Shown here: positions 1-51,625 of the stretch, in pieces | Layout: each line of letters opens with the position of its first letter | Numbering within the stretch: the first letter of the stretch is position 1 | Assembly (NCBI GenBank): GCA_000146465.1 | Contig: CP001945.1 | DNA length: 64,000 bases | Reading direction: 5' to 3' (one strand) | Made by a program: the position numbers and the translations under genes | Notes under the pieces: model-generated | What the model was told of the DNA's origin: nothing | Databases searched by the model: none | The model's input: the letters and a program-made list of their open reading frames with translations, nothing else

Positions 1-2490
<2,490 letters not shown>

Positions 2491-2519
2491 AAAAAAATTC
2501 CCCCCAATCTCTCAAATAC

Positions 2520-3811
2520 TGATCCTGCTGCTGGTTCTCCAACAGCAGCCATGTTACGACTTATATCTTATCTAACACGAAGGACTCAGACCTTCCAATC
2601 TTCGTCCACTGCGTCATCTTAGATAGCGACGGGCGGTGTGTACAAAGGACAGGGACCCATTCAAAACAACTTGTTCAATCGTTATTACTAGGAATTCCAC
2701 GTTCAGAAGCCCATTACACAGCTTCATCCCTCACAGCAGGCTCCCTCGCCATCTATCGTAGTGCGCGTGCCGCCCGCTTCATCTCAGGGCATAACGGACC
2801 TGTTCTGTTCCATTCCTCCCTTGCCCCAAAGAGCACTGTCAAAGGGTCTCACATCTTACGCAACTTAATCCAAAGCTCACGCCATCCATTTCAAACGGCC
2901 ATGCACCACCGCCGCGCGCATCCCGTCCTCGTTCTCCTGCCCGCTTCAGAACCGGTAAGTTGCCCCGCGTTGAGTCAAATTAAGCCGCACACTCCACTCC
3001 TTGTGGTGTCCTTCCGTCAATCTCTTCAAGTTTCACTCTTGCGAGCATACTATCCCCAGAACCCACATACTCAAGATTTCTCATGCACAACACTATATAG
3101 TCCCGTCCAGTCGGCATCGTTTACTGCTAGAACTAAAACGGTATCTAATCGATTTCGATCCTCTAGCCTTCGTCCTTCATCGTCACATAAGTCCAAGAGC
3201 ACAGCCTTCGCTTCTGTCCGTCCAGTCAGGGTCTTCGTATTTCACCCCTCGCCCAACTATCCGGTGCCCCTCGTCCTCTGCCAAACCTCTTACATCCACA
3301 TCAGGACATAATCCCCCAAACAAAGACATACAAAAGACTACGGACTTTTTAACTGCAGCATTCACCATAGACACTATTGGAGCAGGTATTACCGCGGCTG
3401 CTGGCACCCGACTTGCCCTCCAATCAATCTCGACTCCTTTACACTCGAAAAAAACTCACTTCTCATAACCGCCTCCCCAAAGGATTAGGCAAGTTTCGCG
3501 CCTGCTGCCATCCTTGGACGTAGTAGCCATCTCTCAGGCTCCCTCTCCGGAATCAAACCCCGATCCCCCGTCTCCCGTCTCCGCCTAGTTAGGCCATTAC
3601 CCTAACTACCAGCTGATAGGCCTACAACTTACTTGGCTCGTGTCAAAAACACTCCTAGCCCCCTACCTGCAGTTTCCCGCAGTTACAGCTCTCCCGCCAA
3701 CCAAATCATCGTACTATCACTGAGCCGTCCGTCAATCCCCCACAAGGTTCATCAACATGCATGGCTTAGTACCAGAGAATAGCAACCACGTCAGGCAGAA
3801 TCAACCTGGTG
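2520..3811 (-). rRNA. SSU rRNA, complete, about 1292 nt (microsporidian-sized 16S-like)
   Basis: The 5' end CACCAGGTTGATTCTGCCTGAC is the reverse complement of 3790-3811. The 530-loop GGTGCCAGCAGCCGCGGTAAT is the reverse complement of 3385-3405. CCTTTGTACACACCGCCCGTC is the reverse complement of 2629-2649. The 3' end ...AACCAGCAGCAGGATCA ends at 2520. A short ITS (about 2491-2519) follows before the LSU. Confidence 0.9.
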
Positions 3812-10370: not shown

Positions 10371-10444
10371 TACCCAGCGTGGGACTCGAACCCACAACCT
10401 ATAGATTAAGAGTCTATCGCTCTATCCTGTTGAGCTAGCCAGGC
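10371..10444 (-). tRNA. tRNA-Lys (anticodon CTT)
   Basis: The reverse complement GCCTGGCTAGCTCAACAGGATAGAGCGATAGACTCTTAATCTATAGGTTGTGGGTTCGAGTCCCACGCTGGGTA folds as a cloverleaf with anticodon loop CTCTTAA and T-loop GGTTCGAGTCC. A T6 run follows immediately downstream on the coding strand, consistent with a Pol III terminator. Confidence 0.85.
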
Positions 10445-45081: not shown

Positions 45082-45196
45082 CGAATTTATAGCCCCCGTA
45101 GCTCAGTCGGTTAGAGCGTGGTACTTATATGCTGGAAAGCTGTGCAATACTTGGTTTATACTGCTAAGATATGCCAAGGCCGCGGGTTCGAGTCCC
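45082..45196 (+). tRNA. tRNA-Ile (anticodon TAT) with a 41-nt intron at the canonical 37/38 position
   Basis: 5' exon GCCCCCGTAGCTCAGTCGGTTAGAGCGTGGTACTTATA, intron 45120-45160, 3' exon ATGCCAAGGCCGCGGGTTCGAGTCCCGCTGGGGGCA. Anticodon stem TGGTA/TGCCA, loop CTTATA|A. Eukaryotic tRNA-Ile(UAU) genes characteristically carry an intron. TTTT follows at 45200. Confidence 0.85.
45120..45160 (+). other. tRNA intron (41 nt) within tRNA-Ile(TAT)
   Basis: Inserted 1 nt 3' of the anticodon. Removing it restores the anticodon stem pairing. Confidence 0.8.
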
Positions 45197-45258
45197 GCTG
45201 GGGGCAGTTCTTTTCTTCTAATATTCTATAGTTTCTTTTAATTCCTTTGGCTTTCTTC

Positions 45259-47040: not shown

Positions 47041-48708
47041 TCAACTAAACAATACTCCGTCTGAGAAATGATACACCTTGTCGAACTTATTTAACAGGTC
47101 CGAATTCCGCATTATCATTATAATAGTTTTGTCCGAGAGGTTCTTCATAATCATGTCAACTAATCTATTCTCAGACTCTTTATCCATGTGAGAAGTCACC
47201 TGGTCAAATATATATATAGATGCATCTTTGACAACTGTCCTCATCATACTGACCTTTTGTTTCTGTCCCCCACTCAGTCTGTTACCTCCATTTCCAACAA
47301 GGGTTTGATACCCTCCATCAAGGTTTTTAAATACCCCATCCAGCTCATACCTTTTACAGAATTCCACAATCTCCTCATCGCTCAAACGTGAGTTCCCATC
47401 CCTTATGTTGCCAATGACAGATTTGTTAAACAGCTGCGATTCTTGAGGCGAGTACGCTATCATCTTACGGAGCCCCTCTTTGCTCAAACCATTGAGCTCC
47501 ATACCGTCGATTTGAATGCTCCCAGAATAGTCAAGAAACCCAAGCAGAGCTCTAGCAAAAGAAGTCTTCCCCCCTCCGTTGTCTCCAGATATACCTATCT
47601 TCTCCCCCTTTCTTATGCACATGCTCACATTCCTTATCAGCTTCTTGCCTTCTATCGATATCTCCAACCCCTCAATTTTTATCTCTCTTTCTAAGTTCTC
47701 CTTGTAGTACCCGATTTCCTGTATGTCCTCCCTACTCGGCTCGCTTCTATTCTGTGCTATGTTTGTAAGATTCAATAGAATCATTCCAAAGCTGTTGCTT
47801 ATGTCGACACAATACATTCGAAGCTGGTTACTTAGTGAGAATATCAAGGTATAGTCTCGAAAGCCAATATTCTTCGTATCTCCATTTGAAAATCGAACAG
47901 TCATTATAAACATTGCTATGACAAACATATTCTCTCCAATAAAGTTTCCAACCTGCAACCAGCTCCAATATATCTTGGCATATTTTGTTTGGCCCTTCAT
48001 ACATTTGTACAGCTCGTTTGCCTCTAGCTCTTCGTTATTGTATGATTTTATAATGTCATAATTCAATATGCTGTTGTAGATTTTCCTATTCGACAGGTCA
48101 ATCTCCTTGTTCATCTTCAGTCTGATGATGTTTCGATAGTGGTTTAAGACGATGACACATACTCCATAGACAATCACAACTCCTGCCATGAGCAACCCAT
48201 AGCGATTCTCAATCCCACTTCGGATTTTAATCACCGTTATCAGTACACAGAACAGACTCATTATAAAGCACTTTATAATCGATTCCAAGACATCTCGTAG
48301 AGACAAGACCTTCCTATTCATGAATGAAATCATGTCTCCCACCCCTATCTTTTTGAAATCTAAAAACGACATGGATATATGCTCCCTATACAGATCTATA
48401 ATGTAGTCTCTACATATAGTTTCTATGTAGCTAGACATCACAAACAGAGAAACAAATCCAAACACATAGGAAGAAAGAGCTACTGCTAAATATACCTTGA
48501 TTTTTCCGTTCACAGCCTCTGTCTCATCAGCCTTCTCCTGGATTTCATTCAGAATTTCTGTAATGAATATTTCTCCATATCCTGCTACTAGTAATATTGC
48601 AATCACAGGAAGAATAATGACCCTAACAACCGGAGATCCAAGAATATATTTGAAAAGGATATCCCTTACTGCCGAGAGTTTGCTGGATCTCTTCATAACC
48701 TCTTTCAT
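47041..48708 (-). CDS. ABC half-transporter (TMD-NBD, ABCB-like)
   Basis: Six TM helices then an NBD with Walker A GDNGGGKTS, signature LSGGQKQKVSMMR, and Walker B IYIFDQVTSHMD. Confidence 0.85.
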   Translation of the reverse strand: MKEVMKRSSKLSAVRDILFKYILGSPVVRVIILPVIAILLVAGYGEIFITEILNEIQEKADETEAVNGKIKVYLAVALSSYVFGFVSLFVMSSYIETICRDYIIDLYREHISMSFLDFKKIGVGDMISFMNRKVLSLRDVLESIIKCFIMSLFCVLITVIKIRSGIENRYGLLMAGVVIVYGVCVIVLNHYRNIIRLKMNKEIDLSNRKIYNSILNYDIIKSYNNEELEANELYKCMKGQTKYAKIYWSWLQVGNFIGENMFVIAMFIMTVRFSNGDTKNIGFRDYTLIFSLSNQLRMYCVDISNSFGMILLNLTNIAQNRSEPSREDIQEIGYYKENLEREIKIEGLEISIEGKKLIRNVSMCIRKGEKIGISGDNGGGKTSFARALLGFLDYSGSIQIDGMELNGLSKEGLRKMIAYSPQESQLFNKSVIGNIRDGNSRLSDEEIVEFCKRYELDGVFKNLDGGYQTLVGNGGNRLSGGQKQKVSMMRTVVKDASIYIFDQVTSHMDKESENRLVDMIMKNLSDKTIIMIMRNSDLLNKFDKVYHFSDGVLFS

Positions 48709-48903: not shown

Positions 48904-49274
48904 ATGACAGTCGTGCAATACATCCTACTCAGGAGTGACTTGAGCTTTTCAAGAGGCGCAGTAATTGCCCAGGCCTGCCATTCAAGCGTCTATTCCATCG
49001 AAAAATACAGAAACCACCCAGACACAATAGAGTATCTAGAAAACATAGAATCTATGGCAAAGATAATTCTGAAGGTAAGTGGATGGATTAATTTTAGATT
49101 AAGGAAAAGGATGTGGAAGAGATAGCCGGATATCTTACTTCGAAAGGCATAGACCATACTGTTTGGATTGAAGATCCGGAAAGAATACCAACATGCATAT
49201 CTCTCAGGCCGTACAAAAGAAGCCATATACCTGATGTTGTTGATTATTTAGCAAGGTTTGGGCTATTCCGTTGA
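48904..49274 (+). CDS. PTH2: Peptidyl-tRNA hydrolase 2 (PTH2), two exons joined across a 23-nt spliceosomal intron (exon 1 48904-49074, exon 2 49098-49274)
   Basis: Exon 1 encodes YILLRSDLSFSRGAVIAQACHSSV (PTH2 motif D-L-x-M-x-x-GK-x-AAQ-x-x-HA). An in-frame stop follows, but intron GTAAGTGGATGGATTAATTTTAG (49075-49097) joins to an exon 2 encoding DVEEIAGYLTSKGIDHTVWIEDPERIPTCISLRPYKRSHIPDVVDYLARFGLFR, which aligns to the PTH2 C-terminus (DEETL..LL.HAK.LGL....I.DAGRTQIAPGS.TVLGIGP...ID.VTGHLKL). The spliced product is 115 aa. Confidence 0.75.
49075..49097 (+). other. Spliceosomal intron (23 nt) in PTH2: 5'ss GTAAGT, branch-like TTAAT, 3'ss TTTAG
   Basis: Seen directly in the sequence. Its length is not a multiple of 3 and its removal restores the PTH2 reading frame across the apparent stop. 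Confidence 0.7.
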
Positions 49275-49384: not shown

Positions 49385-51625
49385 ATGAACTCATGTCTCA
49401 AGGATGAATACAGGCGGCAGTTGATGGGAGATTGCAATCAGATGCCTTGCCATAAGGTGTTCTGCAGAGGAGGTCTAAAGGACGAGGTGGTTGAGGCATT
49501 ATCAGAACTGCTTTCAAGGTATGGAGATGTGTTTCTATGCAGAAACATATGCAAAACCATTGATGAAGCTTCTGGAAGAAGCTTAGGAGAAGATGGAGAC
49601 ATAATCCTAGACTTTTTCTTTTGCATAAATGGAATGGGCCCCAAAAGAGGACCTGCTTCGGAAATCAGGACTTGCGAAGATGACGATGGTGCAAGGAAGC
49701 CCCGAACGAAAAACGAAGAAGACAAAGGCGTCTTAAGGCTTGAGGGAGGAATGGAGTCAATGGAATGGGCCAAGAGAAAGTTTAAGAAGAAAGGTGTTCC
49801 TTTGTTCAAAAATAAGACCGGGAATAGATTTGGATGCTTGAAAATCAACGAGATGAAGGATGAGTTTGATGGAGCAGGTCGGCTCGACCACAGTATTTGT
49901 ACTCTTATATCCAGAAAAGAAGAAATCTCAGAGGAGAAAAGATACATTCTTATTGGTGTGCTCCATCTACTTCTCAAGAAGTATGAAAACTCTCTTCATC
50001 TAACTCTTGGAATGATGATTATCAGAATTTATTACTCGATAAGTAGATATGATGATATTGAAGAGATATATTATCCAATATTGTACAAGGTGTTCTGTAA
50101 TATACGTAGTTTGTACAGTGAAATGCTTAAGAAGACTTCGCTCAGTGAAGGCATAGGTTGCGAAGGAGGAAAGATAGACATGAGAGAAGGCCGGGCTATT
50201 TGCCTTTACCTCCCCAGGTTTACAAGGCTTGATCTTTCGATGCTTGTAGACAACATAACTACTACTCTTAATTCTGAGGAGGTGATTGACAGCCGAGAAA
50301 GTAAGAGAGTTGATAATCTCCTAGGAATGCTCCATATGCTATATCTTATAAATGAGGAGTGTGGTTTCCTCAGCTACAAAAAATTCTATCTATCTGCCTT
50401 TTGTTCCCGGATGAACTTCCGTGAGGAATTCAAGCACTTCAGAACAAGGTCGAAGACACCTCTTAATTTTCCCTTTATCCTTCCTGTCCACATCAAGGCA
50501 GAGCTGATTAAGTATGAAAATAACGACAAGATGAAGACATCTTTACAAGATTCCTTTTTTAAGTCTCTATTTGAGGGGCATGTAGATCCATATCTGTTCA
50601 TTACCGTCAATAGAGAAACCGTGTATAGAGATAGCATAGAAATATTCAAGAAGATGAATGTCCTGGATGCTAAGAAGCAGCTTAGAACCACATTCAAAAA
50701 CGAGGAAGGAGTTGACTCCGGAGGAATAAGAAAAGAGTATTTCCAGCTACTGAGCCAGGAAATCAAGGAAGACGAAAGGCTGTTTGAACACACAGAGAAC
50801 CGAATCTGGATCAGGCCCCATAAAGGGGATGAAGAGGAATACGAAGCTATTGGAAGAATAATTGCCATTGCATTTTACAACAACATTGTCTTAAACATTC
50901 CATTTCCAAGCCTATTCTTCAAGAAGCTTCTTGATAGAAAGCCAACCCTCGATGATCTTAGAGAGATATCTTCTGGTATAGCCACATCGCTGAGGAACCT
51001 CAAAAGACTTTCAAAGGATGAAATAAACGGACTAGATCTCCGATTTGTTGCGGAGCATATAGTCGATGGAACTACAAGAATATATCCTCTTGTGAAGAAT
51101 GGAAAAAACATAAAGCTGACATCGGAAAACATGAAACTGTTTATTGAAAAATATATCGAGTTCCATACAGACACTCTTATAAAGCCTCAGTTCGAAGCCA
51201 TTAGGAGAGGATTCTACTCCATAATAGACAGGGACAAAATGGTATACTTGGATCCAAAGGAATTGGAGAAGATAATGATGGGGTCGAATACATTTGACAT
51301 CAAAGCAATAAGATCCACCACCACATACTCCGGATTCCAGGAAGATTCCCCAATCATCACATACTTCTGGGAAATATTCGAGGCTCTGAACAGGAAGAAA
51401 AAGAAAAAGCTTCTTCAGTTCATTACGGGAAACGACAGGATACCTGTCTCCGGCTCTGCATCGCTGAAGCTCATCATAATGAAAAACGGATGCGATACGG
51501 ACAGACTCCCCTCCTCGCAAACATGTTTCAACACACTTCTACTCCCCGAGTATTCATCCAAAAGGAAGTTGGAGAAAAAACTTGAAACTGCACTAGAGCT
51601 CACTGCAGGATTCTTCCTTCTCTGA
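49385..51625 (+). CDS. HECT-domain E3 ubiquitin-protein ligase
   Basis: C-terminal HECT domain with the catalytic Cys region ...LPSSQTCFNTLLLPEYSSKRKLEKKLETALELTAGFFLL. Confidence 0.85.
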   Translation: MNSCLKDEYRRQLMGDCNQMPCHKVFCRGGLKDEVVEALSELLSRYGDVFLCRNICKTIDEASGRSLGEDGDIILDFFFCINGMGPKRGPASEIRTCEDDDGARKPRTKNEEDKGVLRLEGGMESMEWAKRKFKKKGVPLFKNKTGNRFGCLKINEMKDEFDGAGRLDHSICTLISRKEEISEEKRYILIGVLHLLLKKYENSLHLTLGMMIIRIYYSISRYDDIEEIYYPILYKVFCNIRSLYSEMLKKTSLSEGIGCEGGKIDMREGRAICLYLPRFTRLDLSMLVDNITTTLNSEEVIDSRESKRVDNLLGMLHMLYLINEECGFLSYKKFYLSAFCSRMNFREEFKHFRTRSKTPLNFPFILPVHIKAELIKYENNDKMKTSLQDSFFKSLFEGHVDPYLFITVNRETVYRDSIEIFKKMNVLDAKKQLRTTFKNEEGVDSGGIRKEYFQLLSQEIKEDERLFEHTENRIWIRPHKGDEEEYEAIGRIIAIAFYNNIVLNIPFPSLFFKKLLDRKPTLDDLREISSGIATSLRNLKRLSKDEINGLDLRFVAEHIVDGTTRIYPLVKNGKNIKLTSENMKLFIEKYIEFHTDTLIKPQFEAIRRGFYSIIDRDKMVYLDPKELEKIMMGSNTFDIKAIRSTTTYSGFQEDSPIITYFWEIFEALNRKKKKKLLQFITGNDRIPVSGSASLKLIIMKNGCDTDRLPSSQTCFNTLLLPEYSSKRKLEKKLETALELTAGFFLL

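Follow-up and report, generated by a model that had tools for sequence, protein, structure and literature searches.

A 23-nt intron at a likely ancestral position in the PTRHD1-type PTH2-family gene of Encephalitozoon intestinalis

The segment 48904–49274 of the DNA analysed here (a stretch of 64,000 nucleotides from Encephalitozoon intestinalis contig CP001945.1, called the window, to which all positions refer unless otherwise noted) is very probably the PTRHD1 orthologue of this organism, a member of the PTH2 family with a single 23-nt phase-0 intron of the U2 type, likely ancestral, and would be spliced to a product of 115 amino acids (aa). The interruption at 49075–49097 is a real spliceosomal intron and an ordinary one, being publicly annotated and belonging to a class that has already been described. 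The spliced product is identical (100% identity over 100% of the length) to the NCBI entry "peptidyl-tRNA hydrolase PTH2" of E. intestinalis ATCC 50506, and thus the public annotation already joins both exons in the same manner. The annotated gene is this gene, with nothing different, and in E. cuniculi GB-M1 the orthologue ECU04_0485 has a matching intron and matching synteny. What is modestly new is comparative only: the position of the intron is common to Rozella and probably to human, and Hamiltosporidium probably possesses an unannotated intron of 19 nt at this position.

The features of the locus and the dimensions of its orthologues are summarized in Table 1. Removal of 49075–49097 in silico, by which 49074 is joined to 49098, gives the 115-aa product, and the Pfam profile PF01981 matches residues 4–108, over profile positions 2–112 of 115, with 67 bits (gathering cut-off, 23 bits). 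The 73-aa ORF found without splicing covers profile positions 2–57 and exon 2 alone covers 59–112, so the two halves abut exactly at the proposed junction. The N-terminus of the exon 1 product aligns with those of all orthologues. The first-pass annotation of this DNA, made from the letters and a list of open reading frames, had reported a 73-aa ORF ending at 49125, a 23-nt GT–AG intron in the middle of the coding sequence and a downstream frame with homology to PTH2; the coordinates of the ORF and the sequence of the intron proved exact, and exon 2 is homologous to the family by itself. The 73-aa ORF would be the coding product expected of an mRNA that retains the intron. An alternative acceptor, ATTAAG, is present 6 nt downstream of the one adopted, and was rejected on reading of the sequence because the resulting 29-nt intron breaks the frame.

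Table 1. Features of the PTRHD1/PTH2-family locus of E. intestinalis, with the sizes of the orthologous genes
Feature	Position in the window, or span	Strand	Remarks
Upstream neighbour, ABC transporter	47041–48708	-	555 aa; divergent
Exon 1, PTRHD1/PTH2-family gene	48904–49074	+	171 nt = 57 codons from ATG; C-terminal end ...KIILK
Unspliced ORF	48904–49125	+	73 aa = 57 genuine residues and a 16-residue out-of-frame tail
Intron, U2-type spliceosomal, phase 0, GTAAGTGGATGGATTAATTTTAG	49075–49097	+	23 nt; position and signals kept in five species
5' splice site GTAAGTG	49075–49081	+	Invariant in E. intestinalis, E. cuniculi, E. hellem, E. romaleae and Ordospora
Intron interior	49082–49088	+	7 nt; variable between species
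Branch-point-like TAATT (49089–49093), then TT, then AG acceptor (49096–49097)	49089–49097	+	
Exon 2	49098–49274	+	58 codons (IKEKDVEE...FGLFR) and TGA stop; 177 nt including the stop
Downstream neighbour, HECT-domain E3 ligase	49385–51625	+	746 aa
Orthologue, E. cuniculi ECU04_0485 (three assemblies)	371 nt		115 aa; implied intron 23 nt
Orthologue, E. hellem	368 nt		114 aa; implied intron 23 nt
Orthologue, E. romaleae	368 nt		114 aa; implied intron 23 nt
Orthologue, Ordospora colligata (L006 1501–1886)	386 nt		116 aa; implied intron 35 nt

The signals of the intron agree with the published patterns. Its donor, GTAAGT at 49075–49080, fits the extended consensus GTA[AG]GT; the TAATT at 49089–49093 lies within 0–4 nt of the 3' AG, as the branch-motif expression taken from PMC3486916 specifies; and the length of 23 nt falls inside the range of 22–76 nt given for E. 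cuniculi in PMC3629993. The assignment of the branch point to any one adenosine within 49089–49097 is putative. A strict scan for GTAAGT...TAAT...AG over both strands of the 64-kb window recovered one site, as against about 1.3 in Markov shuffles, and the motif is therefore not above chance there. Because the motif by itself occurs at the chance rate, the claim of an intron rests on placement and on conservation between species and not on the motif: the lone site of the scan falls precisely where the frame of a homologous gene breaks, and it is conserved in the orthologues.

The gene is found between a divergent ABC transporter gene (555–557 aa) and a downstream HECT ligase gene in the window as well as in E. 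cuniculi, E. hellem, E. romaleae and Ordospora, and the protein of ECU04_0485 is 74% identical to the spliced product of E. intestinalis. In the DNA alignment, the interruption lies at one common site in all five species, so that the position of the intron is shared with these four related microsporidia. GTAAGTG is invariant among the five, and at the 3' end the introns of the four Encephalitozoon species have TAATTT[T/C]AG and that of Ordospora has GTAATTTAG, while the 7-nt interiors of the four Encephalitozoon introns are GATGGAT, CCCAAGC, GATGATT and GATAATC. The fractions of variable sites at codon positions 1, 2 and 3 among these four species, counted in the spliced frame, are 0.30, 0.18 and 0.67 for exon 1 and 0.38, 0.31 and 0.71 for exon 2, and this excess at the third position indicates coding-type evolution of both exons. 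Four relatives from metagenome and SRA data (P0005, P0007, P0009 and P0010) have intronless collinear genes, the proteins of which are gapless over K57/I58, and by these the junction is fixed to the nucleotide. The intron of Ordospora is 12 nt longer than that of Encephalitozoon and contains two TAAT(T) motifs, one internal (GCTAATTT) and one at the 3' end.

The proteins recovered by a profile search under the name PTRHD1 belong to Nosema granulosis, Vairimorpha necatrix, Ecytonucleospora, Rozella, a bat and a myxozoan. Bat PTRHD1 is 41% identical over the full length (E = 4e-26), and human PTRH2/Bit1 was matched in sequence with just E = 0.05 in a search against solved structures. Judged by its closest named homologues outside the Microsporidia, the E. 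intestinalis product belongs to the PTH2 family as a protein of the PTRHD1 type and is not a canonical Pth2. Of the earlier description of the spliced product as the canonical 115-aa PTH2 enzyme, the length and the family thus stand and the word "canonical" does not. The product scores below the cut-offs of both NCBIfam Pth2 equivalogs (TIGR00283 and NF003314), with 36.1 bits against 82 and 34.7 against 126, although these models were built for archaea and bacteria and the low scores show only the distance from archaeal Pth2. The canonical proteins (archaeal Pth2, human PTRH2/Bit1 and yeast Pth2) have the Pfam family and the fold in common with the product (TM 0.75–0.83 to 3erj, 1xty, 2zv3 and 1q7s), but their identity to it is just 18–24%. 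Animal PTRHD1 is extended at the N-terminus by about 25 aa relative to the E. intestinalis product, and its introns are presumably far longer than 23 nt.

The AlphaFold model of the spliced product has a pLDDT of 92.8 and a pTM of 0.86, and each of its 14 best matches in the PDB is Pth2, Bit1 or an archaeal homologue that is uncharacterised, the highest TM score being 0.83 (archaeal Pth2, 3erj). The product is thus modelled, with confidence, as a complete Pth2 alpha/beta fold. The exon junction coincides in the model with the end of the strand formed by residues 52–58, and in the unspliced product the domain would be short of two helices and two strands. Membership in the family suggests that the product has peptidyl-tRNA hydrolase activity.

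The first-pass annotation had regarded an internal intron in a gene of this kind as unusual among microsporidia, and this view was not borne out. According to the summary given in PMC6349667, Lee et al. (2010) added 20 introns in E. cuniculi that are without 5' bias and lie mostly in non-ribosomal genes, so that an intron in the middle of a non-ribosomal coding sequence is a described category and not an oddity. The short, non-5'-biased introns of Encephalitozoon (Lee et al. 2010; Grisdale et al. 2013) are, like the present one, about 23 nt long and of the GT–AG type, with a strict GTAAGT and a branch motif tight to the 3' AG; they too lie off the 5' end in non-ribosomal genes, and their retention shifts the frame. 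We found no difference between this class and the intron at 49075–49097. The locus tags ECU04_0485 and Eint_040450 do not occur in the main texts of the literature searched, and ECU04_0485 is listed only among the expression values tabulated by Grisdale et al. (2013). The previously annotated introns of E. cuniculi were all confirmed as spliced by RNA-seq, as stated in PMC3629993; it is from this general statement, and not from a value specific to ECU04_0485, that splicing of the orthologous intron would follow.

A comparable gene has been described in Vavraia culicis, in which VCUG_00792, a peptidyl-tRNA hydrolase, contains a 22-nt intron in the middle of the gene that is 27.7% spliced according to RNA-seq (supplement of PMC4435813). 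Going by the published description, it resembles the E. intestinalis gene in the Pfam family assigned by the authors, in the nearly equal length of the intron, in its mid-gene place and in a nearby HECT gene, VCUG_00794, which is two genes away. VCUG_00792 is without a match in yeast, and another gene, VCUG_01212, was separately matched to yeast PTH2 (PMC4435813), which suggests that VCUG_00792 is of the PTRHD1 type. Desjardins et al. (2015; PMC4435813) stated that only V. culicis and its relatives have the intron of this gene. This statement conflicts with the annotations of Encephalitozoon and Ordospora, which likewise show a mid-gene intron in a PF01981 gene; if the genes are orthologous, these annotations were overlooked.

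Actual splicing of the intron in E. intestinalis, and its efficiency, are inferred here. The intron splits the gene between codons 57 and 58, and the reduced microsporidian spliceosome would take the invariant GTAAGT as the donor and, just short of the AG acceptor, TAATT as the branch motif. With 49074 joined to 49098, the mRNA would encode the whole alpha/beta domain of 115 aa, whereas retention of the intron would shift the frame and lead to the 73-aa product without half of the fold.

Three other explanations were weighed against this one. The interruption might be a 23-nt insertion or frameshift in a decaying PTH2-family gene, or an error of the assembly, with a merely coincidental GT...AG; the chance rate of the splice-like motif in the window speaks for such an origin, as does the weak expression of the E. 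cuniculi orthologue (10–14 FPKM for ECU04_0485 in the table of PMC3629993). We consider it very improbable, because three assemblies of E. cuniculi share the same interruption with E. hellem, E. romaleae, Ordospora and an SRA assembly of independent origin, and the downstream frame is always intact after its removal, whatever the length removed. The pattern of invariant signals around a varying interior, with the third-position excess in both exons, and the complete domain fold predicted for the spliced product also argue against decay. Still less probable is a bypass of the 23 nt without a spliceosome, whether by splicing of the Ire1/HAC1 type, by a bulge-helix-bulge endonuclease, or by ribosomal frameshifting or hopping. 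In favour of a bypass, 23 nt is near the lower limit of spliceosomal introns, and the unconventional intron of XBP1, at 26 nt, is of similar size. However, RNA folding of the region is not significant (z = -0.31, with 74 of 200 shuffles folding as well), and a structured or Ire1-type intron was ruled out on this score; the conserved parts are exactly the canonical GTAAGT, TAATT and AG; and introns of 22–76 nt are established substrates of the E. cuniculi spliceosome (PMC3629993).

The remaining explanation accepts the intron as real and holds that it is mostly retained, so that inefficient or regulated splicing would throttle expression and the main transcript would encode the 73-aa peptide. 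We regard this as rather unlikely. In E. cuniculi, fewer than half of the transcripts are spliced at 30 of the 37 introns, and less than 20% at 22 of them (PMC3629993). From these mostly low values for short E. cuniculi introns, and from the value for V. culicis, a large share of the E. intestinalis transcripts may by analogy retain the intron. The coding constraint on exon 2 in the spliced frame argues, on the other hand, that the product under selection is the spliced one, and in the same paper the low splicing of E. cuniculi introns is ascribed by the authors to an inefficient spliceosome and not to regulation. A spliceosomal intron whose removal restores the 115-aa PTRHD1-type protein is the reading that we adopt.

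Outside Encephalitozoon and Ordospora, the position is occupied in Rozella allomycis, in which PTRHD1 (KE560815.1; L014 1175–1202) has a 28-nt intron, GTAGGTTCAGATATTAACAGAAATAAAG, after ...VVLK; this phase-0 intron is identical to the 23-nt intron of E. intestinalis in phase and in alignment column (K57/I58). In Hamiltosporidium tvaerminnensis (PITJ01000486.1; L013 1105–1461), the PTH2-family protein of the annotation has no more than 61 aa and ends in ...KVILK-VFYS. When the 19 nt GTATTTTATTCCTAATTAG (L013 1276–1294) at the homologous site are taken out, a 112-aa homologue ending in ...SKFKLY is obtained, and this stretch is probably an unannotated intron. A length of 19 nt would undercut the range reported for E. 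cuniculi. In human PTRHD1, a published primer for the boundary between exon 1 and exon 2 encodes VLE/APD, the junction being located within the 18-nt primer, and the alignment of bat PTRHD1 places VLE/APD in the homologous column. Two truncated ORFs from eukaryotes (P0058 and P0060) end in V or VS, as a GT donor would give, directly after the homologous residue. Intronless orthologues are known from Nosema/Vairimorpha-like sequences, two metagenome relatives from JGI and a rotifer. The rotifer orthologue had been picked to test the position in animals; since it is intronless, the support from animals comes from the human junction primer and the two truncated ORFs.

The two metagenome relatives (L008 and L012, from JGI metagenomes 3300073837 and 3300073835) are microsporidian-like, 58–59% identical, and carry intronless PTRHD1 genes whose synteny differs. 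A rough neighbour-joining tree of about 115 residues places both together with Encephalitozoon and Ordospora, and such a grouping would imply that the intron was lost inside this clade. Because Rozella has an intron at this position, as do apparently, on indirect evidence, Hamiltosporidium and human PTRHD1, the simplest reading of the sequences, held with moderate confidence, is that an ancestral intron has been kept in Encephalitozoon and lost repeatedly and independently elsewhere.

Two other regions of the window also drew attention. The genes for LSU rRNA (27–2407) and microsporidian SSU rRNA (2517–3811), both on the minus strand, form a complete rDNA unit at the start of the window. The rDNA of Encephalitozoon is subtelomeric, and the unit at 27–3811 fits a position at a chromosome end. 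In addition, a tRNA match from Rfam at 45092–45206 on the plus strand covers the full model with 57 bits and is 115 nt long, as compared with 74 nt for the tRNAs at 10371–10444 and 13185–13258. ARAGORN reported no tRNA at 45092–45206, which is probably an intron-bearing tRNA gene.

For annotation, the intron has a practical consequence, in that gene calling from ORFs only, or in prokaryotic style, cuts the gene to 73 aa, and knowledge of the intron leads to the correct proteome. It had been suggested that the intron is easily missed by ORF-based annotation, and this holds for the shortened calls P0008 and P0011, derived from Logan, and for P0057, the annotation of Hamiltosporidium, but not for the public annotation of E. 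intestinalis, which includes the intron. P0008 and P0011 come from Encephalitozoon-like SRA assemblies, have 73 and 78 aa, respectively, and end in ...LKVSG; the intron thus gives rise to systematic mis-calls in large collections of proteins.

Miniature introns with rigid signals, processed by a minimal spliceosome, are a part of microsporidian biology that has already been well described. The position shared with the PTRHD1 genes of Rozella and human makes this gene a handy case for asking why a few introns resist loss. It may be that the position is one of the few ancestral opisthokont ones that have outlived the genome reduction of the Microsporidia, with introns of 19–35 nt in this group and 28 nt in Rozella and with several losses, and that its persistence might mean function; for this broader proposal we see the arguments as evenly balanced. 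If it is true, the persistence of an intron in the middle of a coding sequence, in spite of the ease with which introns are lost by reverse transcription, might reflect a throttling of expression through inefficient splicing.
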